A program made the position numbers and the translations under genes. DNA of 64,000 bases from Christensenellaceae bacterium. GTDB taxonomy: Bacteria; Bacillota; Clostridia; Christensenellales; Borkfalkiaceae. Position 1 is the first letter of the stretch. Each line of letters starts with the position of its first letter. Positions 1 through 25,905 of the stretch are shown here, one piece after another. The DNA lies in the NCBI GenBank assembly GCA_045639245.1, contig JAZUCS010000011.1, forward strand, positions 4,380 through 68,379. Reading direction: 5' to 3'. Below the pieces are notes generated by a model that saw only the letters and a program-made list of their open reading frames with translations, did no database searches and was not told the DNA's origin.

Positions 1-1
1 T

Positions 2-811
2 GCTGGTGCGCTTTTCTTGAGTTTTGGTTCGAGTTTTTATAAATATTCCTTCCTTTTAGGTGCATTATCTATAGGTCTTCTCGGCATTATTTGGTTTTGC
101 TTTTATTCTTCTTTAACCGTAAATAATAAGCGTGAAACGGTTCAACCTATTAAGAATGATGAGACTGATAAAACAAGCAAAAGTAGTGCGCCTTTAGGAT
201 TTAGCTTTTTATTCCTCTTTGCGTCACTTTGTCTTTTTGCTATACTCGTAAATTTTGTTAAGGATGGTGTTAGCACTTGGTTTCCAACCATCTTAAAGGA
301 AAGTTTTAATTTTAACGACAGTTTATCTGCATTGTTAACCTTTGTATTGCCAGTATTTGGTATTTTCGGTACAACGGTTTCAATGTGGCTGAACAAAAGA
401 ATTAAAGATTATATAGCAATTATAGGTGTTGTGTTTCTTGCAACGGCAGTGATTATAGGCGCAGTATTATTCTTGTTTACTCAAGCGAATGCAGTGTCGC
501 TAGTGAGTGCGTTGGTAGTAATTTGTTTTGGCTTAATCTCCTGCATAATATATAGCGCAAACAACATTATTACTTCAAGAGCGCCATTGTTTTTAAGAAA
601 TAAAATGAATGCGGGGCTAACTGCAGGGTTGCTTAATGGCTTTTGTTATTTAGGTAGTACGCTTGCTGCTTACCTAATAGGCTTAGTTGCCGATGCAAGT
701 GGATGGATATCCGTTTTCGTTCTATTGCTATCTGTCTGTGTTTTTGTTTTGGTTTACACAGCTATTTATTTATTAATTAATCTTTTTAGGCAAAAAAATT
801 CTAAAACATAA
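2..811 (+). CDS. MFS transporter, C-terminal part (5' end cut by window edge); resembles GlpT/UhpC-type organophosphate:phosphate antiporters
   Basis: The frame is open back to nt 2 (AGALFLSFGSS...), so the TTG at 17 is not the true start. Multiple hydrophobic helices flank a charged central loop (NNKRETVQPIKNDETDKTSK). FVKDGVSTWFPTILKESFNF resembles the GlpT/UhpC segment YGILDWSPTYLKE. Confidence 0.6.
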   Translation, partial: AGALFLSFGSSFYKYSFLLGALSIGLLGIIWFCFYSSLTVNNKRETVQPIKNDETDKTSKSSAPLGFSFLFLFASLCLFAILVNFVKDGVSTWFPTILKESFNFNDSLSALLTFVLPVFGIFGTTVSMWLNKRIKDYIAIIGVVFLATAVIIGAVLFLFTQANAVSLVSALVVICFGLISCIIYSANNIITSRAPLFLRNKMNAGLTAGLLNGFCYLGSTLAAYLIGLVADASGWISVFVLLLSVCVFVLVYTAIYLLINLFRQKNSKT

Positions 812-827
812 TGAGAAAAGGAGAGAT

Positions 828-3128
828 ATGAAGGGCTATTTTTGTGACGAGAAAAAAGAATATGTTATAAGGGATATGTATCCAGTAAGACCACTTTATA
901 ACTACTTGTGGTCAGAGCATACCGTTTCCACGCTTGACCATTTTGGTAACGGCTTTACCACAAGTGTTAGAGACGGTAAGTGGAGAAATATTGAAACGGG
1001 CACACGTAACTTCTATATTAAGGATAGGGTTAGTGGTGAATATTATTCTGCCAACAGAAATTACAAAAGAGAACCTTTTGATGTTTTTGAATGCCATGTT
1101 GGGCTAGGCTATCAGCTTATTGTTAGTCAGTATAAAGGTATAAGAACGGAAATTACATTTGTTATTCCAAACGATTTACGTGCTCTTATGACGGGGATTA
1201 AGGTTAAAAACGTTTCTAGTGAAAAGAAATCTATCGACCTATATACCACTACTGAGCCTGTTATTAATATGACGGCACATTATTCAGAAGGTGAGGCGTT
1301 TTTTTCTAAGGAAGCTAATGGTTTAATTTTCTCTCACGATGCGTTTGAATACGAGCTTCCGTATAAGCACGTTTACCTATCGAGTGCAAAAGAATTTTAC
1401 GGATACGACGTAACCAATTCTAGATTCAAAGGCATTTACGAAGGATATGAAAACCCAGTAGCATTATGTGAGGATAGACTTGCTTCAATAGATATTAACG
1501 CAGATAATAACCACGTTGGTGCATTCCAATTTAGGCTTGACCTTGAGGCTGGAGAAGAGTGGGAAAACGTTCTTCTTTGCGGGCTTGCAGAAACAACAAA
1601 TGAGGCGATAACTCATTGTAATTATTGCACGTTAGAAAACTTTGCTAAAGAACTTAAATTACAAGAAAATATTAATAACGAATATTTAGACGTGTTCGTT
1701 TTAGATTCTCCCGACAAAATACTTAACTCGCAGGTAAATGTTTGGCTTAAACGTCAGCTTGCTTTTGGAAAAACGTGGGGCAGACTTTGGGGCAAAGGGT
1801 TTAGAGACGTTATGCAGGATATAACTTCATTTGCACCCTTTGACGCTGAGCTTGCCAAGAAGAGAATACTCTATGCCTTAAAACACGTTTACGAAAACGG
1901 CAACCCTATAAGAATGTTCGAGCCTACTTATCTCTATCCCTATAATGACGGCGCAATTTGGGTTCCTTCGGCAATTCTTGCCTACCTTAACGAAACGGGC
2001 GACTTATCTATTTTGGACGAGCAGGTTCAATATTTACCTGGTTCAAGCCTCGATAATTCCGTTTATGACGACGGCTCCTTCTCTTATCCTAAGTATAAGG
2101 GTACGGAGTACACCGATTCAGTGTTTGAACACGTTAAGCGTTGTATGGATTATATTATTGGCTCAAGAGGTGAAAAAGGCTTGGTGTTGTTCCGTGGAGG
2201 AGATTGGAACGACAGTATTAATAGTGCGGGAAAACTCGGCAAGGGTGAAAGCGTTTGGCTTTCTATTGCAACCTATAAAGCACTTAAGGAATTTGAGGAG
2301 ATATTAACCCTTTATAAAAAGGAAGAACTTGTTCCATATTACGCAGAAAAGAGAGAAGAACTTAAAGGTTACATTCTTGAAAACGGAAAAGACGGTGACC
2401 ATTTCTTATACGGTTATAATGATTACGGCTTAAAAATTGGCTCTGATGAGAATGATGAAGCAAAGATTTTCTTGAATCCTCAAACCTGGGCAGTTCTTGC
2501 AGGACTTGTGGAAAAAGAAGAACTTGAAAAGATTATGGACGTTGTCGAAGAGAGGCTTGTATGTGATTTTGGTTACGTTCAGTGTGCGCCCTCTTACGTC
2601 AACCCCAATCCCAATATAGGCAGGGTAACGTATATGAAGCCGGGGCTTGTTGAAAACGGTTCTGTATATAATCACGGTGTTGCGTTTAAGCTCGTTGCCG
2701 ATTGTATACTTGGCAGAGGTGATACGGCGTATAATACTTATCTAAAAATTAGGTACGATAATCCTAAAAATGCGGATTCGGGTGTCGAGCCTTATGCTGT
2801 AACTAATATGTATATAGGTCCAGAAAATCCATATCGCAAAGGGTATGCTAGAAACAACTGGATAACGGGAACTGCCGGTTGGCTTTATAGGGGATTAACC
2901 GAGTACTTCTGTGGGATTGTTCCCACCTTTACAGGCTTAAAAATATTGCCGAACTTCCCAAAAGCGTGGAATAAGGTTAATATTAAAAGAAAGTATAGAA
3001 ATTCCGTATACGACGTTCATTTTGAAAGAGGGGAAGAAAACCTCGTTATCGTAGACGGTGAAAAAATAATAGGAGAGATATTGCCTTTCGGAAAGAGTGA
3101 ATATTCCGTTAAGGTAATCTACAAATAA
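828..3128 (+). CDS. GH94-like glycoside phosphorylase (cellobiose/chitobiose phosphorylase type)
   Basis: 766 aa with no signal peptide and a GGAG-type RBS. The N-terminus GYFCDEKKEYVIRDMYPVRPLYNYLW follows the G.F.D..REYVI....P.PW.NYL pattern of cellobiose/chitobiose phosphorylases. GGDWNDSIN matches the catalytic DWND motif. TGTAGWLYRGLTEYFCGI matches the conserved C-terminal barrel segment. Confidence 0.7.
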   Translation: MKGYFCDEKKEYVIRDMYPVRPLYNYLWSEHTVSTLDHFGNGFTTSVRDGKWRNIETGTRNFYIKDRVSGEYYSANRNYKREPFDVFECHVGLGYQLIVSQYKGIRTEITFVIPNDLRALMTGIKVKNVSSEKKSIDLYTTTEPVINMTAHYSEGEAFFSKEANGLIFSHDAFEYELPYKHVYLSSAKEFYGYDVTNSRFKGIYEGYENPVALCEDRLASIDINADNNHVGAFQFRLDLEAGEEWENVLLCGLAETTNEAITHCNYCTLENFAKELKLQENINNEYLDVFVLDSPDKILNSQVNVWLKRQLAFGKTWGRLWGKGFRDVMQDITSFAPFDAELAKKRILYALKHVYENGNPIRMFEPTYLYPYNDGAIWVPSAILAYLNETGDLSILDEQVQYLPGSSLDNSVYDDGSFSYPKYKGTEYTDSVFEHVKRCMDYIIGSRGEKGLVLFRGGDWNDSINSAGKLGKGESVWLSIATYKALKEFEEILTLYKKEELVPYYAEKREELKGYILENGKDGDHFLYGYNDYGLKIGSDENDEAKIFLNPQTWAVLAGLVEKEELEKIMDVVEERLVCDFGYVQCAPSYVNPNPNIGRVTYMKPGLVENGSVYNHGVAFKLVADCILGRGDTAYNTYLKIRYDNPKNADSGVEPYAVTNMYIGPENPYRKGYARNNWITGTAGWLYRGLTEYFCGIVPTFTGLKILPNFPKAWNKVNIKRKYRNSVYDVHFERGEENLVIVDGEKIIGEILPFGKSEYSVKVIYK

Positions 3129-3130
3129 TT

Positions 3131-3904
3131 ATGTGGAACGGTAAGAAAAAAGCAGTAACCTTTAGTATGGACGACTTTGTGCCACAGGATGTAAGGTTTA
3201 TTGAAATGCTCGATAAATATGGGCTAAAAGGTACTTTTAACGCAAATTCAGGTGCGATAGGCGTGGATGCTGAAAGAGTTGCTTTTATGCCTGGTGCAGT
3301 GGGTGACCCCATTATTGTAAATGGGAAAGAGTGTCATAAGGAAACTGTTGAAAAACCACACGTTAGAGTTAATGAAATTAACGATATTTATAAAAATCAC
3401 GAAATTGCAGCGCATACGCTAACACATAAGGTGTTAACTCGTTTAGACGATAGCACGGTAGTTTTGCAGGTTGAGGAAGATAGGCTAATTTTAGAAAGTC
3501 TGACCGGTAGAAAAATCGTTGGCTTAGCTTATCCTGGTGGTGGAAAAGGTCCTATTTTTGACGATAGAGTTGCAGAAATTCTAAGGACTAAAACAGGTAT
3601 AAAATACGCAAGAACGAACGGTCAATCATTTAATTTTGAGCTTCCTAAGGACTTGTATCAGTTAGAGATGACTATGCACTTTGCCGATTTTAATAAACTT
3701 ATGGAACTTGGTAAACAGTTCTTGGAAACGGAATTCGACCATCCTGTATGTTTTTCTATATGGGGACATACCTATGAAATGGACGATGCGTATACTCCTT
3801 GGGAAGAAGTGGAAGAGTTTTGTAAATTTATCTCGGGCAGAGAAGACGTGTTCTATGGAACAAACGAAGAAGTGTATTTAGACCCTGACCTTGGTTTGAA
3901 GTAG
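3131..3904 (+). CDS. Polysaccharide deacetylase, NodB/CE4-type
   Basis: 257 aa, no signal peptide. NodB-like motifs are present: TFSMDD (Asp pair), HTLTH (His ligands) and AYPGGG. Starts 3 nt after the upstream stop. Confidence 0.8.
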   Translation: MWNGKKKAVTFSMDDFVPQDVRFIEMLDKYGLKGTFNANSGAIGVDAERVAFMPGAVGDPIIVNGKECHKETVEKPHVRVNEINDIYKNHEIAAHTLTHKVLTRLDDSTVVLQVEEDRLILESLTGRKIVGLAYPGGGKGPIFDDRVAEILRTKTGIKYARTNGQSFNFELPKDLYQLEMTMHFADFNKLMELGKQFLETEFDHPVCFSIWGHTYEMDDAYTPWEEVEEFCKFISGREDVFYGTNEEVYLDPDLGLK

Positions 3905-3911
3905 GTGAAAT

Positions 3912-4679
3912 ATGTGGAACGGAAAAAATAAAGCTATAACATTTAGTTTTGACGATGCAGTTGCCGAGGATAAGAGGCTTATAGAGATTTTAGATAAATA
4001 CGGCTTAAAAGCCACTTTTAATATAAATTCTGGTTTTTTAGGTGTTTACGGAGAAGGTAAATATCTCAAAAGAGGAGCGTCTGAAACGGAAGAAACAGTT
4101 GAGGTTAACGGTGAACTTTATCATTACGAAGTAAAGCCAAAAATTCGTATTAAGCCCTGCGAGGTAAAGGAAGTTTATAAAAATCACGAGGTTGCTTGCC
4201 ACACCATTAAACACTGGCCATTGACTCTTTTAGACGACGATACTATCGCCCTTCAAACTGAGGCTGATAGACAAATTATTGAAAAGCTTGTAGGAAAACC
4301 CGTTGTCGGTATGGCTTATCCCTGTGGTGGGGTAAATTGCGATGATAGGGTAGCAAAAGTTATTAAAGAAAGGACAGGAGTTAAATATGCTAGAAGTTTT
4401 GTTAAGACCTATTCTTTTGAATTTCCTAAAGACTTGTATCAGTTAGAAAGTACTGTTAGATTTACTGAAACTGATAGGATGTTTGAATTAGCAAAAGAGT
4501 TTCTAGAAAAATCGTTTGATTACCCCGCCGTTTTTTCCATTTGGGGGCACGGCTATGAGATGCAAGATGATACGCATAATTTTGAATGTTTTGAAAAATT
4601 CTGCGCCTTTATTGCACACAAAAACGATATTTTTTACGGAACAAATCGTGAAGTATATTTATATAACGAAAAACAATAG
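3912..4679 (+). CDS. Polysaccharide deacetylase, NodB/CE4-type (tandem paralogue)
   Basis: 255 aa. Shares the MWNGK.KA.TFS.DD start, HT..H, AYP.GG, PKDLYQLE and FSIWGH.YEM segments with the upstream gene. Confidence 0.8.
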   Translation: MWNGKNKAITFSFDDAVAEDKRLIEILDKYGLKATFNINSGFLGVYGEGKYLKRGASETEETVEVNGELYHYEVKPKIRIKPCEVKEVYKNHEVACHTIKHWPLTLLDDDTIALQTEADRQIIEKLVGKPVVGMAYPCGGVNCDDRVAKVIKERTGVKYARSFVKTYSFEFPKDLYQLESTVRFTETDRMFELAKEFLEKSFDYPAVFSIWGHGYEMQDDTHNFECFEKFCAFIAHKNDIFYGTNREVYLYNEKQ

Positions 4680-4698
4680 GAGTAAAAGGAGATAAATT

Positions 4699-5781
4699 AT
4701 GAAAATTATATTTGGTTCAGACGTTTCAGTGCACGCTGGAAGTGAAAACGAAAAACTCTTTGCAGAAAGAAGAACGAAAGAGATTTTTAACGACGTATTA
4801 GACGTTGTTAAAGAGGCAGATGCTACCGTTGTTAATTTAGAGTGTGCAGTTACCGAGAGTGAAAACAGAATTGCAAAATGTGGTGGCAATATTAAAATGC
4901 CATACGGCACTTGTGAAGTGTTAAAAGAAGCCGGCATTGATTACGTTGGTATTTCTAATAATCACGTGTACGATTTTGGCAGAGAAGGTCTTTTAGACAC
5001 CATTAGAGAGTTGGAGAAGAACGGCATTAAGTACACGGGTATTGGAAAGGACGTTGAAGATGCTAGGAAGGATATGATTATAGAAAAAGACGGCAAAAAG
5101 GTTGCTATCATTGCCGTTTGCGAACACGAGTATTCTTATGCGTTAGAGGATAGAGAGGGGTGCCGTGAGTATGACCCATACGACACCAACGACGATATCG
5201 TTGAGGCGAAGAAGAATGCCGATTACGTTGTGGTTATGTATCACGGTGCAAAGGAGCATAGTCGTTTTCCTTCTCCCAGAATTATTAAAGCTTGCCGTTC
5301 AATGGTAAAGCACGGCGCAGACCTCGTTATGTGCCAACACACTCACTGTATTGGTTGCTATGAAGAGTTTATGGGTGGACATATTCTATACGGTCAGGGT
5401 AACTTTATCTTTTTAGAGCCACACAACACTTCGGATTTGTGGAACACTATGCTCTTAGTTAGGGCAGATTTCGGCGACAAATTGACTGTTGATTTTATTC
5501 CCGTAGCAACTTGCAATAATTATACTGGTGTTGAGCTTGCTAAAGGCGAAGAAAAGGAAAGAATATTAAATGAACTTTTCGAAAGAAGTAAAAAGCTTCA
5601 CGACGGTACTTGGAAAGAAGAGTGGGATAAGTTCTGCTGGTCAATGGGTTGGTATAGGTTTATTCCTGAAGAGCTTAAGGAAAGAACTGCCCACTACATG
5701 GATTGTGAAGCGCACCTTGACGTAATGAAGCATATATACAAAACGGCTCATCACACTAATGAAAGAGAAAATAGAGAGTAG
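4699..5781 (+). CDS. CapA/PGA_cap-family metallophosphoesterase-fold protein, cytoplasmic (copy 1)
   Basis: 360 aa. Family-typical pattern: FGSD.S, VVNLECA.TES, LK.AGI.YVGISNNHVYDFG, MYHGAKEH, CQHTHC. No N-terminal membrane anchor or signal peptide. Confidence 0.72.
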   Translation: MKIIFGSDVSVHAGSENEKLFAERRTKEIFNDVLDVVKEADATVVNLECAVTESENRIAKCGGNIKMPYGTCEVLKEAGIDYVGISNNHVYDFGREGLLDTIRELEKNGIKYTGIGKDVEDARKDMIIEKDGKKVAIIAVCEHEYSYALEDREGCREYDPYDTNDDIVEAKKNADYVVVMYHGAKEHSRFPSPRIIKACRSMVKHGADLVMCQHTHCIGCYEEFMGGHILYGQGNFIFLEPHNTSDLWNTMLLVRADFGDKLTVDFIPVATCNNYTGVELAKGEEKERILNELFERSKKLHDGTWKEEWDKFCWSMGWYRFIPEELKERTAHYMDCEAHLDVMKHIYKTAHHTNERENRE

Positions 5782-5830
5782 TCTATAATAAGACGAAAAG
5801 ACATAATAAAAAGAGGAACAGGAGAGAATT

Positions 5831-6883
5831 ATGTTTGACGTAAATGGATGCAAATGTCACGATTTAGTAACTGATAAAATCGTGCCTGAACTTAGTTTTG
5901 ATAAATCTAAGAACTTGGCTGAGCAAAGGAAAATATTAAGAAATAAGTTTGTCGAGCTTTCGGGTATAGATAAAATTAAAGAAAACGATTGCCCATTAGA
6001 ATACGAAATTATTGAAGAAGTTCAAGAGGACGGCTATAAACGTATAAAAATTCATTATCTTAGTGAAAAGGATATGGTTGTACCGTGTTATCTTCTCGTT
6101 CCTAACGGATTAAATGGTAAAGCACCCCTTTGTATCGTTTTGCAGGGTAAGACGAAAGGTTATAAGTATTCTGTAGGCTTAGGTGATGAATACGATTTAG
6201 AGGACGATTTTGAAAAGCCTGATTACTCTAAGGTGGACTATGCTATCCAAGCTGTTAAACAGGGCTATTGCGCCTTAGCTGTTGAGCAGAGGGCAATGGG
6301 CGAACTTTTCCCTTACGACACTAAGAGAAACTGGATGGGTAGAAACCGCTCGGGGTTTACCACGTTTTACGCTTTTACTTTAGGCAGAACCACTGTTGGT
6401 GAAAGGGTGTGGGATATGAGCAAGGCGATTGACGTTATGGAAAATTTCCCAATGGTCGATACCGATAAAGTTATTATTACTGGCAACCACGTTGGTGGCG
6501 TTACTGCTTATTATGCTGCAGTTTATGATGAAAGAATTAAAATCTCTGTTCCGTCCTCTGGATTTTGTTCCTATAGGTATAGTGTTTTGGATATTAGTAC
6601 TACATATTGTCAGACCATTCCAAGAGCATATTTGCATTTTGATATGCAAGATTTGGCACAGTTAATCGTTCCTAGAAATTTAGTGGTAATTAGTGACAAG
6701 AACGACGAAGAGTTTCCTTTTGATAAAGCTAAGGAAAGCTTTGATAAGGTGAAAGAAATTTATTCTTGTTATGGCGCCAGTGAAAATTGTGCTCAGGTTG
6801 TTAAGGAAACAGAGGACGCTTCTTGGGATAAGGAAGTTTCTTGGAAAGCAATTAATAATTGCGCTAAAAAACTTGGATGGTAA
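5831..6883 (+). CDS. Alpha/beta-hydrolase-fold protein, esterase-like but lacking the canonical Ser and His (possible pseudoenzyme)
   Basis: 350 aa paralogue of 6894..7937. At the nucleophile elbow it reads GNHVGG (His codon CAC at 6488-6490) where the paralogue has GNSGGG. At the C-terminal His position it reads EDASW where the paralogue has KGHYW. Confidence 0.65.
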   Translation: MFDVNGCKCHDLVTDKIVPELSFDKSKNLAEQRKILRNKFVELSGIDKIKENDCPLEYEIIEEVQEDGYKRIKIHYLSEKDMVVPCYLLVPNGLNGKAPLCIVLQGKTKGYKYSVGLGDEYDLEDDFEKPDYSKVDYAIQAVKQGYCALAVEQRAMGELFPYDTKRNWMGRNRSGFTTFYAFTLGRTTVGERVWDMSKAIDVMENFPMVDTDKVIITGNHVGGVTAYYAAVYDERIKISVPSSGFCSYRYSVLDISTTYCQTIPRAYLHFDMQDLAQLIVPRNLVVISDKNDEEFPFDKAKESFDKVKEIYSCYGASENCAQVVKETEDASWDKEVSWKAINNCAKKLGW

Positions 6884-6893
6884 GGAGAGAATT

Positions 6894-7937
6894 ATGAAAT
6901 TAATAGTAAATCCCGATTTGTGCCACGATAATCTTGCAAAAAATGCAAAAAGGCTTTGTGCGTTTGACGAAAACGTGGACGTTTCTGTTCAAGGAAAAAA
7001 AGCTAGAGAGAGGTTGATGGAAATAACAGGCATTAAAGAAATTGAAAAAAATGCCTGTCCTCTTACCATTAATATAATAAGCGATGAAATGAAAGAGGAA
7101 TTTCGTCAAATTCAATTAACTTATGAAAGTGAAAATGGATGCGACGTGCCTTGTTACGTTTTAATTCCAAACACTAATAAAGATAAATATCCTGTTGCGA
7201 TAACTATGCAAGGTCATTCATCTGGTTTTCATAACTCGATAGGTGAGATTCGCCCTGGTGATGAGGATTATCACCCAAGAGGTGCTTTTGGTGTGCAAGC
7301 AGTAAGAAACGGTTTTATTTCTATTTGTATTGAAAATAGAGGTATGGGGTGCAGGTCGCCAAAGCTTGCAAAACGTCGTCGATATACTAAAGGGTGCGAA
7401 TATCCTGCAAAATCAGCATTAATGCTTGGCAGAACGCTAATCGGTGAAAGAATGTGGGACATCAGTAAAGCTATAGATATGATTTCAACTTTTGAAATAT
7501 TTAAGCAGTGTGATACCGATAAAATACTAATTACCGGTAACAGTGGTGGTGGCACGATATCCTACTACACTGCAGTTTATGATAGTAGAATAAAATTGAC
7601 GGCACCGAGCTGTGCTTTCTGTACCTACGATATGAGTATATTAAAGGTTGGACATTGTTCTTGCAATTATATTCCCTCAATGAGAACGTCCTTTGAAATG
7701 CAAGATTTGGCAACTGCAATAGCACCGAGAAATATAATAGTTATCGCTGGTGTTAACGATGATATATTTTTAATTGACGGAGTAAAAGAAGGGTTTGAAA
7801 CGATAGAAAAAATCTACAAAAAAGCAGGAGTGCCTGAGAGGTGTAGATTCGTTCAAACACCTAAAGGTCACTATTGGTGCGAAGATATAGTTTGGCCTGC
7901 AATAAAGGAAGAAACTGTTAAACTCGGATGGTTTTAA
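6894..7937 (+). CDS. Alpha/beta-hydrolase esterase (acetyl-esterase/dienelactone-hydrolase-like)
   Basis: Start moved to the ATG at 6894, which follows AAGGAGAGA. The listed 6771 start overlaps the upstream gene. Nucleophile elbow GNSGGG (Ser codon 7542-7544), acidic GVNDD and C-terminal KGHYW give a plausible Ser-Asp-His triad. No signal peptide. Confidence 0.7.
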   Translation: MKLIVNPDLCHDNLAKNAKRLCAFDENVDVSVQGKKARERLMEITGIKEIEKNACPLTINIISDEMKEEFRQIQLTYESENGCDVPCYVLIPNTNKDKYPVAITMQGHSSGFHNSIGEIRPGDEDYHPRGAFGVQAVRNGFISICIENRGMGCRSPKLAKRRRYTKGCEYPAKSALMLGRTLIGERMWDISKAIDMISTFEIFKQCDTDKILITGNSGGGTISYYTAVYDSRIKLTAPSCAFCTYDMSILKVGHCSCNYIPSMRTSFEMQDLATAIAPRNIIVIAGVNDDIFLIDGVKEGFETIEKIYKKAGVPERCRFVQTPKGHYWCEDIVWPAIKEETVKLGWF

Positions 7938-7976
7938 TAGGAAATAAAATTTCAGATTGAAGTAGAGGAGGAAATT

Positions 7977-9098
7977 ATGAAAATTTTATTTGGTTCGGAT
8001 ATTTCTGTAAAATTAGGAACGAGATGTATTGAATATTTTGCCGAGCAAAACGCTGAAAAGATATTTGCAGACGTGCTTCCACTATTTAAGGAAGTAGACG
8101 AAACCGTGGTGAATTTAGAGTGTGCTATTACTGAGTCTGAGAACAAAATAAAGAAGGGTGGTCCCAATATAAAAGCACCTTTTGGCACTGCTGAAACGCT
8201 TAAAAAGGCAGGGATTAACTACGTTGGTATATCTAATAATCACGTTTATGATTTTGGTAGACCGGGTTTAATTGACACAGTTCGTGAGCTTGAAAAAAAT
8301 AATATAGCGTATACTGGGATTGGTAAAAACGATGTTGATGCAAGAAAGGATTTAATAATAGAAAGAGATGGCAAAAAGATTGCTATTATTGCAGTCTGTG
8401 AGCACGAATATTCCTATGCGTTAAAGGATAGAGAAGGTTGCCGTGAGTATGACCCATACGACACTAACGACGATATTGTCGAAGCAAAGAAAAATGCAGA
8501 CTTCGTTGTTGTTATGTATCACGGTGGAAAAGAACATTGCCGTTATCCATCGCCAAGACTTCTTAAAGCTTGCCGTTCAATGGTTAAGCACGGTGCAGAC
8601 TTGGTTCTTTGCCAGCATACTCACTGTATTGGCTGTTATGAAGAATATATGGGTGCACACATTCTTTACGGGCAAGGTAATTTTGTCTTTGTTGAGGGTG
8701 GTGACCCCGATGAGCTTTGGGATTATTGTTTACTTGTTAAGGCAGAATTTACCGATAAAGTCTCAGTTGAATTCATTCCTGTAAAGGTCAATGGTGACGA
8801 GGGAATTATGCTCTGCCAAGGCGAAGATAAGGAAAGGATTTTATCCGAATTGTTTGAAAGAAGCAAGAGCTTAGAGGATGGCACTTGGCAGGATAAATGG
8901 GAGGAATTCTGTTATTCTAACGTATGTAGTTGGTATAAATTTTTACCTGAAAATTTAGAAAATAGAGTTGCTGTTATGCGTGAATGTGAGGCGCATAACG
9001 ACGTACATAAAGTATTATATAAAACTCACCATTATTATAATGAAAGATACGATGAAAACGGAAATTTAATTCCAAGAGAGGAGCAAGAGAAAGAGTAA
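7977..9098 (+). CDS. CapA/PGA_cap-family metallophosphoesterase-fold protein, cytoplasmic (copy 2)
   Basis: 373 aa, about two-thirds or more identical by eye to 4699..5781. Long shared runs include AIIAVCEHEYSYAL.DREGCREYDPYDTNDDIVEAKKNAD and ACRSMVKHGADLV.CQHTHCIGCYEE. Strong RBS GGAGGA. Confidence 0.72.
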   Translation: MKILFGSDISVKLGTRCIEYFAEQNAEKIFADVLPLFKEVDETVVNLECAITESENKIKKGGPNIKAPFGTAETLKKAGINYVGISNNHVYDFGRPGLIDTVRELEKNNIAYTGIGKNDVDARKDLIIERDGKKIAIIAVCEHEYSYALKDREGCREYDPYDTNDDIVEAKKNADFVVVMYHGGKEHCRYPSPRLLKACRSMVKHGADLVLCQHTHCIGCYEEYMGAHILYGQGNFVFVEGGDPDELWDYCLLVKAEFTDKVSVEFIPVKVNGDEGIMLCQGEDKERILSELFERSKSLEDGTWQDKWEEFCYSNVCSWYKFLPENLENRVAVMRECEAHNDVHKVLYKTHHYYNERYDENGNLIPREEQEKE

Positions 9099-10162
9099 TG
9101 GACGTTTCAAGACTGGATAAAAATCTAGCACAAGAAAGTGGTTGTCTAGAAGACGGATACAAGGCGTACACTCTGCCTTGTGAGCCGATTGATTTATATG
9201 GTGTAGAGTTCAATAAGGAATTAGGCTTTTTTCAAAGAATGCCTTACGATATTGCTAAGCAGGTTAGCTATTGCGTGGAGGTTTTAAGCTCTACTACGGC
9301 AGGTGGAAGAGCGAGGTTTAAGACAGATGCCAAATCTATGGTGATTTCTGTTAAATATAGATATCTAGCACATATGAACAATATGCCCAGAATCGGTTCT
9401 AGTGGTTTTACCCTAATGGAAATTGTCGACGGAAAGTATTGGCGTGCAGGTAAGGTTTTTCCAACAATCAAAGATGAAAAGGGTTTCACGGGCAAGATGG
9501 GCTTAGAAGGGGAAGGCTTGAGAGAATATATACTTTTCTTCCCATTATATAATGACTATATCGAAGAAATTACGCTTGGTTTTAATGAAGGCTCTATAGT
9601 AGAAGGTGGAAGCAAGTATAAATTTGATTTACCTATTCTCTATTACGGCTCATCGATAACGCAAGGGGCAGCAGCATCGAGAAGTGATAACTGTTATCAA
9701 GCGTATATTTCCGAGTGGAATAACGTGGACTATCTTAACCTAGGTTTTTCGGGAAGTGCAAAGGCAGAAGATGTTATGCTTGACTATTTAAAAACTGTAA
9801 AATCAAAAGTTTACGTTTTAGATTACGACCATAATGCGCCAAACCCTGAGCATTTGAGAAAAACGCACTATAAAGCGTATAAAACTTATAGAGACGCAAA
9901 TCCTGATACGCCAATAATAATGATGAGCAAGCCTGACTTTTCAAGGTGGTGCACGACGGAGAGGATTAGAATAATTAAAAACACCTATGAAAGGGCATTA
10001 AAAGAGGGGGATAAAAACGTATACTTTATTGACGGGAGAAGGTTTTTCGGCAAGGTGGACAGGGAACACTGCACTGCTGACGGATGCCACCCCAACGATT
10101 TAGGATTTTACCGTATGGCTAAAGTGTTAAACAAGGTTATTGCACCATTGTTACAAGAATAG
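9098..10162 (+). CDS. SGNH/GDSL-type esterase with N-terminal GxDLY-type domain
   Basis: 354 aa. Contains PIDLYG in the N-terminal domain, block I YYGSSITQG and block V DGCHPND. The ATG overlaps the upstream stop (TAATG). Confidence 0.75.
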   Translation: MDVSRLDKNLAQESGCLEDGYKAYTLPCEPIDLYGVEFNKELGFFQRMPYDIAKQVSYCVEVLSSTTAGGRARFKTDAKSMVISVKYRYLAHMNNMPRIGSSGFTLMEIVDGKYWRAGKVFPTIKDEKGFTGKMGLEGEGLREYILFFPLYNDYIEEITLGFNEGSIVEGGSKYKFDLPILYYGSSITQGAAASRSDNCYQAYISEWNNVDYLNLGFSGSAKAEDVMLDYLKTVKSKVYVLDYDHNAPNPEHLRKTHYKAYKTYRDANPDTPIIMMSKPDFSRWCTTERIRIIKNTYERALKEGDKNVYFIDGRRFFGKVDREHCTADGCHPNDLGFYRMAKVLNKVIAPLLQE

Positions 10163-10176
10163 AATGAGGAGAAAAT

Positions 10177-11478
10177 ATGATTAACGTTAGAGATTTTTTA
10201 GATGCAAATGAAAAACTTGCAACCAAAGCTTTTCAAAAGGCAATAGATTTAGGCTCGGAAAGGGGTGGTGAATGTGTTTACGTTCCTTTTGGCGAATACA
10301 AGCTTTCAACGGTAGTGTTGAAGAGTAATACGAACCTTGTGTTCGAAGACGGGGTAAAGATAATTTCAGCTGATTCATTCAGCGATTTTCTTCCCGATGA
10401 AGAGCCTACTTTTAAGAGATATCAAGACCATTCGCATAGTAGCTACACCTGTTCAATGTTTTTTGCAGATAACGCAGAAAATATAAGCGTAAAAGGTGGG
10501 GCAACTATTGATATGCTCGGAATGTGGGATGAGGAAAATAAACGTAGTCCTTTCGGTGACGGATATCATAGAGGAGTTAAGCCGTTTGCTTTGAGAAACG
10601 TAAATAATTTAAGAATTGAGGGTTTAACTATTGTTAGGGCGACCGACCTTTCCGTTCTTTTAGGCGCTTGTAAGGACGTGTTTATTTCTAAAATGTATAT
10701 ACATTCGCACGTTGACGGAATTTCTCCCGACGGATGTGAGGACGTAGTAATTTCCGATTGTATAATTAAAACGGGTGACGATGCGCTCGTATTTAAGACT
10801 TCAATGTTTGATGGGCAGAAGCACGCCTGCCAGAGAATTTCCGTTAACAACTGCGTTGTAAGTAGTAGAGCAAACGCCATTAAGTTTGGAACGGAGAGCG
10901 TAGGGGACTTTAAGTACGTAAATATCAGCAACTGTGTAGTGCTTAACACCGAGCATTCTGGTATTGCAATCGAGAGTGCAGACGGTGGAAATATTTACGG
11001 TATAAATATTTCAAACATCACTATGTGCAACGTTGCAAATCCAATTTTTATTTATACCTGTGAGAGACTTCGTGCTCCCGAGGGTGCAACTCAAGGCGAA
11101 ATTAGAGATATTAACATTTCTAATATCTATGCCGACGTGCACGATGAAAAGTTTAAGAGTATCGACAGTTGGTATCCAGACATTAAGGAAGGCAGTGATT
11201 ATGGCAGGAATAAATCCTATCCCTCTATGATATACAGTACTAGTGCTGAGAAGAAAATTAAGAATGTCTCTTTAAACAATATAAATATAAAGGTGCTTGG
11301 TGGAGGCAAGCTTACCGACGAAGTGGTGTTTGCTGCGCCCACTAGATATCCAGAGTGCAGTAACTTCAAGTTGCCTTGTTACGGAATGTACGTTAAGAAT
11401 GCTGAAAACCTAAAAATAAACGGCTTAACCATAGAGACCGTTTATCCCGACGAAAGACCTAACGTTATAGAAGAATAA
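10177..11478 (+). CDS. GH28-like right-handed beta-helix glycosidase (polygalacturonase-related), cytoplasmic
   Basis: 433 aa, no signal peptide. Shows HVDGISPDG, KTGDDALVFKT and ANAIKFGTES in the order expected for GH28 NTDG / GDD / RIK-type coils. The GHG motif is not canonical. Confidence 0.6.
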   Translation: MINVRDFLDANEKLATKAFQKAIDLGSERGGECVYVPFGEYKLSTVVLKSNTNLVFEDGVKIISADSFSDFLPDEEPTFKRYQDHSHSSYTCSMFFADNAENISVKGGATIDMLGMWDEENKRSPFGDGYHRGVKPFALRNVNNLRIEGLTIVRATDLSVLLGACKDVFISKMYIHSHVDGISPDGCEDVVISDCIIKTGDDALVFKTSMFDGQKHACQRISVNNCVVSSRANAIKFGTESVGDFKYVNISNCVVLNTEHSGIAIESADGGNIYGINISNITMCNVANPIFIYTCERLRAPEGATQGEIRDINISNIYADVHDEKFKSIDSWYPDIKEGSDYGRNKSYPSMIYSTSAEKKIKNVSLNNINIKVLGGGKLTDEVVFAAPTRYPECSNFKLPCYGMYVKNAENLKINGLTIETVYPDERPNVIEE

Positions 11479-11524
11479 AGGTTACTAAGTAGGGAATAAA
11501 TTGATAAGGGAAAAATTTTAATAA

Positions 11525-12376
11525 ATGGCAAAATTATTTAATCAAAAGAGGGTAAACATATATAATCCTACAAACACTTTTAAGGGATTGAATTGTATAG
11601 ACGCAGGATATTTTGAATACACGCCAGGGGACAAAGTGGAAAAGACTTCAAAGATAACCAAATTATACTACACGATGGTGGTGGTTGTTGAGGGTGATGG
11701 CGTACTCACGTTTAACGATAAAATGGTAAACGTAAAAAATGGCAATGTTTTGTTTGTTCCACCCTGTACGGGATATAGCAACAATACCGGCAGAGAAAAC
11801 GTATATAGGTATTTTTGGCTGAGTTTCGAAGGTGAGGATATTGAAAATTACCTAAGTGCAAAAAGCTTTTACGTCGAGGGGGAGCCTATAGCTTCTCCTA
11901 GCGTGGATAAGGTCTATCTTGCGTTAACCAAGTTCTTACTAGAGAATAACCAAGAAACTGTTACGGAAGAAAAGTTTAATCATCTATTCTTTGAAACGCT
12001 TGAATATTTAACTATGCGCTGGACGGAGAAAAAGAATGAGGATGATTACATTGATAAGATTATATTATTGATAAACGATAATTATGAAAATTCATCTTTT
12101 AACATAAAGTCAATATCAGAAAGCATGCACCTATCACATTCTTGGCTTTGTGCGCTTTTTAAGAAAAAAATGAAAGTGACGATGCAACAGTGGTTAATAA
12201 ACGTAAGGCTAGATAAAGCGAGAGAGCTCGTGGTGGATTCCGATATATCCGTTAGTACGATAGCTTTTTTGTGTGGCTTTAACGATGCGCTTTATTTTTC
12301 CACTTCCTTTAAGAGGGCGTTTGGAAGTTCACCAACTTGTTACAGATTAACACATAAAAGTACACCAAAAGTTTAA
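11525..12376 (+). CDS. AraC/XylS-family transcriptional regulator
   Basis: 283 aa. Cupin-like N-terminal half and a C-terminal double HTH (ISESMHLSHSWLCALFKK ... IAFLCGFNDALYFSTSFKRAFGSSP). Confidence 0.85.
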   Translation: MAKLFNQKRVNIYNPTNTFKGLNCIDAGYFEYTPGDKVEKTSKITKLYYTMVVVVEGDGVLTFNDKMVNVKNGNVLFVPPCTGYSNNTGRENVYRYFWLSFEGEDIENYLSAKSFYVEGEPIASPSVDKVYLALTKFLLENNQETVTEEKFNHLFFETLEYLTMRWTEKKNEDDYIDKIILLINDNYENSSFNIKSISESMHLSHSWLCALFKKKMKVTMQQWLINVRLDKARELVVDSDISVSTIAFLCGFNDALYFSTSFKRAFGSSPTCYRLTHKSTPKV

Positions 12377-12532
12377 TAAAATGGTGTAAAACGTGCCGTT
12401 TAGCACAAACAGTGCTGTAATTTTGGTAATTGTTTTACATAGATTGGGCAAGTTAACTATAAAAATTAATAGCAAAAAGTAAAAAAACACATATATTGAA
12501 TAAATAAATACATGTACAAAATTGCGTTTTTT

Positions 12533-12541
12533 TGATATAAT
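12533..12541 (+). promoter_or_regulatory. Candidate extended -10 promoter element (TGaTATAAT) upstream of the SBP gene
   Basis: TG at 12533-12534 and TATAAT at 12536-12541 lie in the 210-nt AT-rich gap after araC. The RBS AAAGGAGAA precedes the ATG at 12587. No clear -35 was found. Confidence 0.4.
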
Positions 12542-12586
12542 GCAAAAAAATGTTTTATTATAACAAAATTTGTTAAAGGAGAAAAC

Positions 12587-14533
12587 ATGAAAAAATTTAT
12601 CTCATTTTTGATGTGCGCATTTTTATGCGTAGGTGCATGTAGTTCTCTTATCGCCTGCGGTGGCGAGACGATGGACTACGGTAACAAGGTTGTTATCCAA
12701 TATGCAATCGGTGACGGTGGCTTTGGTAGAGCGCATGCTGACGACCTTGCTGCAAGATTTATGGAAAAGTATGGCGACAAAAAATACGGCGACAAAGAAG
12801 GCGTTGTAGTAGAAGTTGTTGTACAGGGTACTACCAGTATCGCAAGTGCTGAAACCAACGGTATTCACGTTACCAACGTTTCTACAGAAGGCGTTCAGTT
12901 AGCTTCTTCCGTTCGTGAAGGACATCTTGCTAACGTTAACGACGTTGTTACTGGCGATTTAGAGCAGATTGACGGCCAAATGGTATCTATCGAAGATAAG
13001 ATTCCTGAGTATGCTCGTGGTATGTATCAAGGTGACCCTGTTAACGGTGTAAGAAATTATTACGCTGTTCCTGGTTATTCTTATTCGCCAGGTCTTACTC
13101 TTGACCACAACTCTTTCGACAAATACGGTTACTTCTTAGCTAATGAAGATGGTGATAACGTAGAGTTTACGTCTCCACTTACTAAGAAGACCTATTACTT
13201 CACCGTGCCTACCGATAGTGGTAATGATGAGGCTACCAATAAGACTCCTGGTCCCGATATGGTATCTGGCACGCAGGACGACGGAATGCCCGCAAACATG
13301 CTTGAGTTTGTTGCGCTTTGCGAAAAGATTAAGTCAGACGACAGATCTCCTTTCATTGCTGCAGGTAAATTCCCTTCATATCAGAAGATGTTTGCTCAAG
13401 CTTTCTTCATTAACCTTTTAGGTAAACAGCAGTTAGAAACTTGGCTTAACTTTGACGGTGGCGATTTTGAAATCGTTACTGGTTACACCAACGAACCCTT
13501 GTTCCCTGGTTTAGACCCCAAGGTTGCTAAAATCTATAAGCCTATTACCAAGAAAGTTAAATTAACTGAAGAAAACGGTTTCTATTCTACTTGGTCTGCT
13601 GCAGAATACTATACGGTTGCATTTACTCAGCTTGCTTGCTTACAGCAGTGGTTCCACGACGGTACTACTACCGATACTTACACCCAAAACGATGCAATAC
13701 TTGATTTCTTAGTAAATGCATACGATACACAGCTTCCTTCTGCAAAACAACCTTTAATGCTTGTTGAAATGAACTTCTGGCAGGCAGAAGCTAAAAAGGC
13801 TGAAATTTACAACCTTTACGATGATTTATATAATCAAGACGGTCACGAGCCTAGAAGACTTACTTGGATGAGCCTTCCACGCTCATTCGACGGATATTTC
13901 ACCGAAGATGAAGTTGAAGAGGGATTGGCTCGTCAGGTACTTTACACTACCAACGCTAACGGTTTAGGTATTGCTAAATACGTTGAAGAAGACCCTGCTC
14001 TTTTCGAAGCTTGTAAAGACCTTTTGAGATTCTATTGTACCGACAATCAGATGAATAGATGGACCAAACAGATTGGTATCACTAAGACTTTAGATTACAA
14101 AATTTCTGATGAAACTCTTCTTGAGTTAAAAGAAGAATCTTGGTATGCTTGGAAGCTTTCTGAACTTGGAAACACCAATATGGATAACGTATATCAATAT
14201 GCAGAAAACGATACCTTTAAGAACAACTATCTTGACTACAGATGTGGCTACCACGGTTGTCCTTTATCAGTAACGCTTGACGGTTCAGAGCGTGGTTCAA
14301 TCACAGCATACTTCTTAAATCTTAAGAACAGCCCTGAGAATAATACTACTGCTAAGAGATGGTTTGAAGCTGGCATGATTTATCCCGAACAGTGGGTAGG
14401 TAAATACTATGGTAAATTTAGTAAGGAAGAAGGTTGGAAGGATTTAACTGATGCGCAGAAAGCTGCAAAATTTCCTTATTCTCTTGACGAGAACGAGCAG
14501 CCTATCGTATTCAACAAGGATATTCCTGCTTAA
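12587..14533 (+). CDS. Extracellular solute-binding lipoprotein of a carbohydrate ABC importer (unusually large)
   Basis: 648 aa. Signal peptide with lipobox (SLIACGG). Immediately upstream of two CUT1-type permease genes. Confidence 0.8.
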   Translation: MKKFISFLMCAFLCVGACSSLIACGGETMDYGNKVVIQYAIGDGGFGRAHADDLAARFMEKYGDKKYGDKEGVVVEVVVQGTTSIASAETNGIHVTNVSTEGVQLASSVREGHLANVNDVVTGDLEQIDGQMVSIEDKIPEYARGMYQGDPVNGVRNYYAVPGYSYSPGLTLDHNSFDKYGYFLANEDGDNVEFTSPLTKKTYYFTVPTDSGNDEATNKTPGPDMVSGTQDDGMPANMLEFVALCEKIKSDDRSPFIAAGKFPSYQKMFAQAFFINLLGKQQLETWLNFDGGDFEIVTGYTNEPLFPGLDPKVAKIYKPITKKVKLTEENGFYSTWSAAEYYTVAFTQLACLQQWFHDGTTTDTYTQNDAILDFLVNAYDTQLPSAKQPLMLVEMNFWQAEAKKAEIYNLYDDLYNQDGHEPRRLTWMSLPRSFDGYFTEDEVEEGLARQVLYTTNANGLGIAKYVEEDPALFEACKDLLRFYCTDNQMNRWTKQIGITKTLDYKISDETLLELKEESWYAWKLSELGNTNMDNVYQYAENDTFKNNYLDYRCGYHGCPLSVTLDGSERGSITAYFLNLKNSPENNTTAKRWFEAGMIYPEQWVGKYYGKFSKEEGWKDLTDAQKAAKFPYSLDENEQPIVFNKDIPA

Positions 14534-14553
14534 TAAATAAAAAGTAGCTTAGA

Positions 14554-14590
14554 AGACTGTTATATATAATGTTTTATATTATAACAGTCT
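14554..14590 (+). terminator. Stem-loop (11-bp arms AGACTGTTATA / TATAACAGTCT) after the SBP gene; partial terminator or mRNA stabiliser
   Basis: Perfect 11-bp inverted repeat, 14554-14564 with 14580-14590, starting 21 nt after the SBP stop. Confidence 0.5.
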
Positions 14591-14644
14591 ATAAGCATAT
14601 AAAAATTATTTTACTAGAAGCATTTTTACTAATTTTTGGACTAT

Positions 14645-14686
14645 AGTATGTATTCCGTAGTTGTAAGAATTACGGAATAACATACT
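14645..14686 (+). terminator. Second long stem-loop in the SBP-permease spacer
   Basis: AGTATGTATTCCGTA (14645-14659) pairs with TACGGAATAACATACT (14671-14686), about 15 bp with one bulged nucleotide. Followed by an A/T-rich stretch. Confidence 0.5.
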
Positions 14687-14718
14687 GTAATAAACTATTT
14701 TTAATGGTGGTTAAAATT

Positions 14719-15729: not shown

Positions 15730-15743
15730 AGGAGGGGATAAAA

Positions 15744-16778: not shown

Positions 16779-16932
16779 TAGAATTATTTGCAAATTTACT
16801 TACAACTTTTCTTGCTAGTTTTCGTATTTTTTTCGTAAAATTAGCAAGATTAGTGGCAAAATTTATGTAAAAACTAAAGCGATATATATACATTAATATA
16901 TACGTTTAAAAAAAATATAAAGGAGAAAAAAG

Positions 16933-20667: not shown

Positions 20668-20678
20668 GGAGGCGTATT

Positions 20679-22781: not shown

Positions 22782-22791
22782 GATTTATATA

Positions 22792-23520: not shown

Positions 23521-23557
23521 TTATTTATAAAAGGTTAAAATTTATAGGAGAAAATTT

Positions 23558-25786: not shown

Positions 25787-25816
25787 TTTCCATAATGGTT
25801 AATTAAAAAATATTTT

Positions 25817-25848
25817 CCTCACGGAGATTATCTCCGTGAGGTTTATAC
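25817..25848 (+). terminator. Rho-independent terminator after the 742-aa lipoprotein gene
   Basis: CCTCACGGAGA (25817-25827) pairs with TCTCCGTGAGG (25831-25841), followed by TTTAT. Confidence 0.6.
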
Positions 25849-25905
25849 TAAACAAGACTTTTATTTAAGTAGATTTTTTTTGAGAATGTAAAAAGGAGAA
25901 TTATT

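Follow-up and report, generated by a model that had tools for sequence, protein, structure and literature searches.

In Bacillus, PgsA/CapA is a membrane-anchored protein of the poly-gamma-glutamate (PGA) synthetase and is encoded together with pgsB and pgsC. Here, we analyzed two genes for CapA-like proteins of the same Pfam family (PGA_cap, PF09587) in a 64,000-nucleotide stretch from a Christensenellaceae bacterium (contig JAZUCS010000011.1; "the window" denotes this whole stretch), which differ from the Bacillus protein in that they carry no anchor, are cytoplasmic, have no pgsB/pgsC found nearby, and are part of a catabolic operon. We found that this pair belongs to a soluble cytoplasmic branch of PGA_cap (CapA/PgsA/MslH) within the calcineurin-like fold and is probably no component of capsule synthesis, and that the characteristic partner of its subfamily is an esterase of a CE15/CE19-like type.

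The closest relative with a described activity is MslH, a Ca(II)-dependent epimerase that acts on the C-terminal Trp of a lasso peptide (PDB 8gq9 and 8itg); its single metal, coordinated by E44, N87, H259, and H261, binds the C-terminal carboxylate of the peptide substrate, and the alpha-proton is exchanged via two His/Asp dyads, H88/D91 and H295/D11 (PMC10406935). Its discoverers proposed that CapA is the epimerase of PGA synthesis (PMC8179263), and the only chemistry known or proposed for the PGA_cap family is the removal of a proton beside a free carboxylate. A natural fusion in Brevifollis gellanilyticus joins a PahZ1-like polyaspartate hydrolase, an alpha/beta-hydrolase (ABH), to a CapA-like domain (PMC13017698). 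By its description, this fusion parallels the adjacent ABH and CapA genes studied here, with polycarboxylate substrates presumed in both, whereas its hydrolase is a polyaspartate hydrolase and not a CE15-like esterase. A literature search, in which "CapA" also matched unrelated words, found nothing linking PGA_cap proteins to glycan catabolism, pectin, or CE15.

In the window, the two CapA-like genes bracket two ABH genes, as the first-pass annotation of this DNA had described:

4699 to 5781, forward strand: CapA-like paralogue 1 (CapA1), 360 amino acids (PGA_cap, E = 7.4e-54)
5831 to 6883, forward strand: ABH1, an esterase paralogue (Abhydrolase_7, E = 3.3e-14)
6894 to 7937, forward strand: ABH2, a predicted serine esterase (Pfam match; GNSGGG motif, His327)
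7977 to 9098, forward strand: CapA-like paralogue 2 (CapA2), 373 amino acids (PGA_cap, E = 7.8e-54)

Membership of both proteins in the CapA family was borne out, with PGA_cap scores of 183.4 and 183.3 bits against a cut-off of 27 and alignments spanning profile positions 2-253 and 11-253 of 255. The two are 69% identical in amino acid sequence over 358 residues, and both retain every conserved residue of the subfamily, including the motifs that had been read from the sequence before, GISNNHVYDFG (residues 84-94), MYHG[AG]KEH (180-187), and CQHTHC (212-217); CapA2 keeps the same conserved residues as CapA1 and adds a 13-residue acidic C-terminal tail. The earlier observation that neither protein has an N-terminal anchor likewise holds: the maximum Kyte-Doolittle mean over 19 residues is 0.98 for CapA1 and 0.92 for CapA2, no hydrophobic or transmembrane segment is present, and the N-termini (MKIIFGSD...) lead directly into the first beta-strand of the fold.

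These features bear on whether the pair could serve ordinary PGA synthesis or turnover, with pgsB and pgsC located elsewhere in the genome. The name of the Pfam family and the strong match to it speak for such a role, whereas the missing membrane anchor speaks against it, and so does the gene content. Using tblastn with B. subtilis PgsB and PgsC queries, we found no PgsB- or PgsC-like sequence in the window and only chance-level matches in 90 related loci, a weak negative that is in keeping with the earlier statement that the pair has no pgsB/pgsC-like partner. Mur-ligase and CapC domains were absent from the 30 window proteins scanned with Pfam, as well as from the 25 commonest families listed for 117 co-directional neighbors within two genes of subfamily members. 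As the context is, moreover, consistently catabolic, a role in ordinary PGA metabolism is largely refuted, and we consider it extremely improbable.

The AlphaFold model of CapA1 (pLDDT 92.6, pTM 0.92) has MslH as its best match in the PDB (Foldseek E = 1.8e-19, TM-score 0.70 normalized to the query), while the next match reaches E = 1.4e-10 and a TM-score of 0.45; these next structures are 5'-nucleotidases and YmdB-like phosphatases, with TM-scores of 0.4-0.5. MslH is also the only PDB match by sequence. In HMMER alignments, the dyad residues D11, H88, D91, and H295 of MslH align with D8, H89, D92, and H216 of the CapA pair, and the Ca ligands E44, N87, and H259 align with E48, N88, and H182. 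These seven residues are invariant in 78-79 of 79 subfamily members (one sequence being gapped), and E142-H143-E144, R152, K185, E186, Q213, H214, E222, and N235 are invariant among them as well. What the CapA pair shares with MslH is hence the PGA_cap/calcineurin-like fold, solubility, both dyads, and three of the four Ca ligands in the alignment. Yet MslH is longer (440 amino acids), with a large insertion at about positions 140-230 that is absent from the CapA pair, and it belongs to a cluster for a peptide made on the ribosome and modified after translation (RiPP), where it needs a precursor peptide and MslB1, whereas the CapA pair lies in a context of carbohydrate catabolism: the Pfam scan of the window showed no lasso-peptide genes near the pair, whose neighbors are carbohydrate-active enzymes (CAZymes). 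A further difference is the C-terminal helical domain with a C-E-x-H-x-D motif, which is specific to the subfamily.

Relative to the binuclear metallophosphoesterases (YmdB, 5'-nucleotidases, purple acid phosphatase), the pair shares the fold, the GNH-type N88-H89, H182, and the HxH motif H214-x-H216, but it has D8-x-S10 where these enzymes have DxH, and E48 at the position of the bridging Asp, such that the full signature is not present. Across the subfamily, Ser, Cys, or Val occupies the His position of DxH, and, judging from the alignment, the first metal site appears to be incomplete, as it is in MslH. MslH, the closest relative of the pair, is mononuclear and no phosphoesterase (PMC10406935). 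Two further observations concern the conserved residues. The C-terminal motif, C336-E337-x-H339-x-D341, is found in 77-78 of 79 subfamily members, and the corresponding region of MslH did not align by sequence. Four cysteines, Cys49, Cys141, Cys217, and Cys336, adjoin the active-site motifs and are 92-99% conserved (about 92% for Cys49, Cys141, and Cys217). We considered a four-cysteine metal or Fe-S site and rejected it, as single cysteines were lost independently across species without an all-or-none pattern.

The genes between the CapA pair point to the likely substrate class. ABH1 and ABH2 are 37% identical to each other and match Abhydrolase_7, GCE_fung, and AXE1. Modeled with AlphaFold (pLDDT 90.5), ABH2 was closest to two uncharacterized Bacteroides esterases, BF1801 (3nuz) and BVU_4111 (3g8y), followed by the BT1017 methylesterase (6goc) and many CE15 glucuronoyl esterases (E of about 1e-13 to 1e-14 for 6goc and the CE15 structures), and then by CE7 acetyl esterases. 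The names and ligands of the BT1017 and CE15 entries point to hydrolysis of uronic-acid carboxyl esters, and characterized relatives of the BT1017/CE15 type indeed cleave esters of the carboxyl group of uronic acids. With Ser218 and His327 retained and a GNSGGG motif, ABH2 is predicted to be an intact serine esterase of the Abhydrolase_7/CE15-CE19-like group. The likeness to CE15 and BT1017, which consists of the ABH2 model alignment and the GCE_fung matches, has its limits: the motif of CE15 is G-C-S-R-x-G, whereas the ABHs of the window have GNSGGG (modified in ABH1, see below); GHSRLGK is the motif of a second esterase cluster, the partner of CapA in other species; the best structural matches of ABH2 are the uncharacterized Bacteroides proteins instead; and ABH1 is catalytically dead.

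In a residue comparison across 32 homologues, ABH1 was found to have His in place of Ser218 (GNHVGG), Ala in place of His327, and Thr in place of His255. Its orthologues also lack the serine, with GNHVGG in L083 (assembly GCA_052829045.1), the closest relative found, which carries the whole locus in the same order, and GNGAGG in L084, a locus of a second lineage. ABH1 evolves faster than ABH2, the identity between the lineages being 43% for the ABH1 orthologues versus 62% for the ABH2 orthologues. Going by these replacements, ABH1 is a conserved, catalytically dead esterase, which may act as a binding or scaffolding partner. The mechanically called open reading frame (ORF) of ABH2, 6771-7937, overlaps ABH1; homology to the 347-residue L083 orthologue sets its start at the ATG at 6894, 10 nucleotides past the ABH1 stop.

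Soluble CapA-like proteins extend far beyond this locus. A word-indexed search yielded 4016 homologues at E up to 1e-10, of which the best 120 are 338-378 amino acids long and contain the PGA_cap domain only. When 50%-identity representatives were scanned exhaustively with HMMER, 21,200 matched at E up to 1e-3, 998 of them at E up to 1e-30. Among the best 150 of these, the majority measure 355-400 amino acids, the remainder are mostly fragments below that length, and the alignment usually begins within the first ~30 residues; from these lengths and alignment starts, we conclude that soluble, anchor-less CapA-like proteins are common. Upon scanning one genome per species, we obtained 80 loci of the subfamily, all of them in metagenome-assembled genomes of gut or rumen Clostridia (Christensenellaceae, Oscillospiraceae, Lachnospiraceae, and others), around which ORFs were called and clustered; the neighbor counts cover 76 species-level loci.

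While the neighborhoods vary widely, an AraC regulator, an esterase of one or the other of two related clusters, and uronate-pathway genes recur in them. The AraC cluster occurs in 33 of the 76 loci and is the commonest neighbor of the subfamily. Of the two esterase clusters, one is of the Abhydrolase_7 type and resembles the ABHs of the window, and the other matches GCE_fung (E = 9e-23) and has the motif GHSRLGK. An esterase of the Abhydrolase_7/GCE_fung type lies directly adjacent to CapA and on the same strand in 14 of the 76 loci, and, conversely, 14 of the 18 such esterase ORFs in these loci touch the CapA gene. The Pfam tally of the 117 co-directional neighbors was led by GCE_fung (14), followed by Abhydrolase_7 (7), AXE1 (5), GH4 (3), and PHP (3), with KduI found twice. 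Individual operons combine CapA with KduI, a gluconate 5-dehydrogenase/KduD-like protein, and GH88 (L060, in the order CapA-KduI-KduD-like-GH88), with GH88 and, further along, PGM-GH28-CapA (L014), with GH94-GH4-ABH-CapA-GH20C (L017), and with GH4-ABH-Metallophos-rhamnosidase-like-CapA and a transporter of the major facilitator superfamily (MFS) (L061); in L011, a CE15-like gene and CapA are followed by a heparinase II/III-like protein. By contrast, three loci devoid of CAZymes nearby (L088, L089, and L090, at ~6700-10400 in each) consist of a LysR gene divergent from EamA-CapA-Abhydrolase_7 among housekeeping genes. CapA and its esterase thus behave as a two-gene module that is either free-standing or built into glycan loci. 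The placement of the CapA pair in a glycan locus, which the first-pass annotation had pointed out, is not accidental: the locus is conserved in related genomes, and the subfamily recurs beside carbohydrate esterases and uronate-pathway genes in many species.

We tentatively propose that the CapA pair comprises accessory enzymes of uronic-acid glycan catabolism that would carry out MslH-type chemistry on the carboxylate freed by the partner esterase. In this proposal, the AraC-associated operon would handle, inside the cell, esterified uronic-acid oligosaccharides (pectic or rhamnogalacturonan-like) delivered by the adjacent ATP-binding cassette (ABC) importer. The partner esterase would release the sugar carboxylate, which would then bind a single metal at E48, N88, and H182, possibly together with E186 or H214, and the dyads H89/D92 and H216/D8 would perform MslH-type acid/base chemistry at the carbon beside the carboxylate, that is, at C5 of the uronate, with either epimerization or beta-elimination as the outcome. 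We favor a sugar carboxylate as the target because the partner esterase resembles CE15/CE19 uronoyl esterases and because MslH acts on a metal-bound carboxylate. Taken as a whole, this scheme is plausible, if somewhat short of probable, and a catabolic, non-PGA role in general is much better secured than the chemistry in particular. A broader version, in which the subfamily would constitute an unrecognized class of carbohydrate-active enzymes in gut Clostridia, namely a uronate C5-epimerase or beta-eliminating lyase on a calcineurin fold in obligate pairing with a CE15/CE19-like uronoyl esterase, seems unlikely to us at present.

Several points weigh against the proposed uronate chemistry. The overall identity to MslH is only 17-18%, and the NCBIfam model of MslH scores 63.8 and 58.9 bits on the two proteins against a cut-off of 700. 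The fourth Ca ligand of MslH, H261, aligns with Ala/Gly184 and has no counterpart; judging from their invariance, E186 or H214 might substitute for it, and the geometry of the metal site as a whole is drawn from the alignment only. The conserved residues are, furthermore, shared throughout the PGA_cap family and cannot separate an epimerase or eliminase from a hydrolase. Among the neighborhoods, about 48 of the 76 loci have none of seven marker groups (the two esterase groups, GH4, GH94, KduI, GH88, and GH28) within 10 kb, and the bare LysR/EamA-CapA-ABH cassettes of three genomes suit a small non-glycan substrate equally well. One paralogue stands beside nagA-nagB, that is, in amino-sugar and not uronate metabolism, which the uronate hypothesis leaves unexplained, and phosphatase-type neighbors (HAD, His_Phos_1, PHP, and Metallophos) are found as well.

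CapA might instead be a metal-dependent hydrolase that strips an ester or amide substituent from a uronic acid or amino sugar of the imported oligosaccharide, in effect a new type of carbohydrate esterase or amidase acting beside the CE4, SGNH, and ABH esterases, a view close to that of the first-pass annotation. Enzymes that remove acyl groups predominate in the operon (two CE4, one SGNH, and one active ABH), proteins of the calcineurin-like fold are overwhelmingly hydrolases, with nucleotidases and phosphatases as the next-best structural matches, one paralogue adjoins the deacetylase NagA along with NagB, and in an enzyme that hydrolyzes a polyamide, polyaspartate, an ABH is fused to a CapA-like domain (PMC13017698). 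Yet no PGA_cap member is known as a hydrolase, the His that completes the first metal site of hydrolytic metallophosphoesterases is replaced by Ser, Cys, or Val, and the characterized member MslH uses the same residues for proton transfer (PMC10406935), and we consider this reading unlikely. A phosphoesterase acting on a sugar phosphate or on a phosphodiester-linked glycan decoration, and tied to the GH94 product and the MFS transporter of the locus, appears less likely still, and indeed improbable. Such an activity would suit the calcineurin-like fold, a weak NCBIfam match to the 2',3'-cyclic-nucleotide phosphodiesterase/nucleotidase model (E = 7e-4), the similarity of the MFS transporter to PgtP/UhpC/GlpT, the phosphatase-type neighbors at some loci, and GH94 itself, the product of which is a sugar 1-phosphate. 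It fits poorly with the incomplete binuclear signature (D8-x-S10 for DxH, E48 for the bridging Asp), with a transporter that is equally near to sugar-acid transporters, with a dominant cross-species partner that is a carboxyl-esterase and not a kinase or phosphorylase, and with a closest structure, MslH, that binds one Ca(II) and is no phosphoesterase (PMC10406935).

The CapA and ABH proteins might also act together on a small non-carbohydrate carboxylate, such as a peptide containing D/L-amino acids or gamma-glutamyl groups, a muropeptide fragment, or an esterified organic acid, in which case their presence in glycan loci would be secondary. The minimal cassettes among housekeeping genes in three genomes, the nagAB-linked paralogue, the high variability of the neighborhoods with many solitary CapA genes, and beta-lactamase-family neighbors in two loci are all in line with this, as is the fact that the characterized and the proposed activities of the family both concern amino-acid residues (PMC10406935, PMC8179263). 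Against it stand the position of the genes, in the window and its relatives, inside a conserved and tightly packed CAZyme operon, the carbohydrate esterases as nearest structural kin of the partner esterase, and the recurrence of uronate-pathway genes; we accordingly rate a non-carbohydrate substrate as rather unlikely.

The CapA pair arose from an old, lineage-specific duplication, and the notion of a recent duplication or gene conversion, which had been suggested on the basis of DNA patches identical between the copies, was not borne out. The 25-nucleotide string in question does occur twice, at 5161-5185 and at 8439-8463 (and not, for the second copy, at about 8432), but the two genes are only 69% identical in DNA sequence, and 109 of 238 (46%) degenerate codons for identical amino acids show synonymous differences. 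As a check for gene conversion, we profiled synonymous sites and shuffled the synonymous-difference status: no stretch of identical codons is longer than the one that contains the patch (8 codons, 26 nucleotides), and a run of this length was reached in 865 of 5000 shuffles. The patch encodes the invariant segment CREYDPYDT and is itself nearly as conserved in the orthologues of other genomes. With a run length at chance level and a high synonymous divergence, we rejected recent duplication or ongoing conversion; a synonymous divergence that is slightly lower mid-gene (0.38-0.42 versus 0.50-0.56 in most flanking segments) and the 26-nucleotide stretch itself are what can be said in its favor, and we hold it to be very improbable. 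Recency is further unsupported because each copy has its own orthologue in L083, with 94% amino acid identity for CapA1 and 84% for CapA2, and the CapA1/CapA2 split predates that between the window organism and the L083 organism.

In a neighbor-joining tree, CapA1, CapA2, and a third paralogue of the L083 genome group together at 94% bootstrap. In the related loci L084 and L085, the order is GH94-CE4-CapA-CapA-ABH-ABH-SGNH-AraC-ABC, and their CapA pair is monophyletic at 100% bootstrap, so that this lineage either duplicated CapA independently or underwent concerted evolution. The ABH1 orthologues of both lineages cluster at 99% and the ABH2 orthologues at 96%; the ABH duplication is older than the CapA duplication and common to both lineages. 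From these trees and the L084/L085 order, the arrangement CapA-ABH-ABH-CapA emerges as the product, in one lineage, of CapA having been copied repeatedly around ABH genes that had duplicated earlier. This arrangement, which had been singled out as not explained by a simple tandem duplication, is thus present but does not mark recent events, and it has CapA-CapA-ABH-ABH as its counterpart in the related lineage. Another variant, L086, reads CapA-AraC-ABC-large protein-DUF4838. The third paralogue of the L083 genome lies within 8062-12327 of L001 in the order AraC-NagA-NagB-CapA-GFO/IDH/MocA, with UxaC ~8 kb upstream.

Around the four central genes, the window contains the following features:

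17 to 811, forward strand: MFS transporter gene, 3' part, cut by the window edge (Pfam MFS_1)
828 to 3128, forward strand: GH94 phosphorylase, cytoplasmic (Glyco_hydro_94, E = 2.6e-78, and GH94_b-supersand; without signal peptide)
3131 to 3904, forward strand: CE4 deacetylase, copy a, cytoplasmic (Polysacc_deac_1, E = 3.8e-12)
3912 to 4679, forward strand: CE4 deacetylase, copy b, cytoplasmic (Polysacc_deac_1, E = 3.3e-15)
9098 to 10162, forward strand: SGNH/GDSL esterase with a GxDLY N-terminal domain, cytoplasmic (Lipase_GDSL_3, E = 7.6e-33; GxDLY, E = 5.6e-20)
10177 to 11478, forward strand: GH28, cytoplasmic (Glyco_hydro_28; nearest NCBIfam model RhamgalacuronBT4146, a rhamnogalacturonidase, E = 2.7e-75, below cut-off)
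11525 to 12376, forward strand: AraC-family regulator (Pfam assignment via the L083 orthologue)
12587 to 14533, forward strand: solute-binding lipoprotein of the ABC importer (lipobox signal peptide)
14704 to 15729 and 15744 to 16778, forward strand: two permeases of the ABC importer (BPD_transp_1 in the orthologues)
16933 to 27914, forward strand: block of secreted proteins and lipoproteins with GH28-like ORFs (Pfam, signal peptides, and synteny in L083, L084, and L086)

The glycan-locus setting was thereby confirmed, with GH94, two CE4, SGNH, and GH28 genes surrounding the CapA and ABH genes. From 828 to 12376, all genes are co-directional, with intergenic gaps of -1 to 49 nucleotides and 16 nucleotides to the upstream MFS gene, a spacing that would fit one transcription unit; a promoter and terminator scan of positions 1-17000 was uninformative, its counts being those expected by chance (51 versus 49 expected, and 13 versus 10). 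All enzymes from GH94 through GH28 are without a signal peptide, in contrast to the binding protein and the large proteins downstream, which carry one, and the layout resembles that of a Gram-positive polysaccharide-utilization locus, with depolymerization outside, import, and trimming in the cytoplasm. The best-scoring GH94 structures for cellobiose, for chitobiose, for a putative b-glycan (4zle), and for cyclic glucan lie about equally far (~1e-70 to 1e-74) from the GH94 phosphorylase of the locus and point to no single specificity. For the MFS protein, the full-length orthologue of which (420 amino acids) is found in L083, the family assignment stands, whereas the label of a sugar-phosphate-type transporter is uncertain: the NCBIfam models of PgtP/UhpC/GlpT and of a D-galactonate (anionic sugar-acid) transporter score about equally on the orthologue, all far below cut-off, and the protein is probably a distant relative of both organophosphate:Pi antiporters and anionic sugar-acid symporters.

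The two CE4 copies form a tandem pair of 52% identity; L084 and L085 have a single copy, such that the tandem arrangement differs among lineages. The solute-binding lipoprotein (12587-14533) is unusually long (648 amino acids) and has no Pfam or NCBIfam match, with only a faint SBP_bac_8 match in its orthologue. The downstream block encodes, in order, a 1244-residue protein without Pfam match, a DUF4838 protein, a 254-residue protein, a Big_2 protein, and then GH28-like ORFs of 157 and 512 residues, both without signal peptides; it is presumed to be the extracellular depolymerizing part of the locus. The 1244-residue secreted protein (16933-20667) and the DUF4838 lipoprotein (20679-22781) are syntenic with the ABC importer in L083, L084, and L086 and are candidates for the extracellular depolymerase. 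The 512-residue GH28-like ORF (26376-27914) matches an NCBIfam model for a BT4155-like alpha-D-galacturonidase (E = 4.2e-49). Within 25906-27914, the 157-residue ORF overlaps it by 4 nucleotides, and the two have similar N-terminal segments and both match the N-terminal part of the Pect-lyase_RHGA_epim profile, an arrangement that may represent a truncated duplicate or a frameshifted gene.

The PGA_cap family is very large, with 21,200 clusters at 50% identity matching at E up to 1e-3, and MslH is the only member for which we know of a demonstrated reaction. Anchor-less CapA homologues are not rare in themselves; what is new here is a widespread, uncharacterized soluble branch of the family with a distinctive partner and context. 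A large branch in gut Clostridia that is tied to uronoyl-type esterases and to the catabolism of uronic-acid glycans offers a concrete entry to function, and the CapA-esterase module gives the search for new enzymes in abundant gut bacteria a clean starting point. Should the proposed chemistry be true, the enzymes that epimerize or eliminate at uronate C5 would gain a new fold, and an unannotated step would be filled in the way that abundant bacteria of the gut and rumen, among them Christensenellaceae and Oscillospiraceae, break down pectins or gums; if the proteins are hydrolases instead, they would found a new family of carbohydrate esterases or amidases. Either way, these genes are wrongly named "capsule biosynthesis protein CapA".

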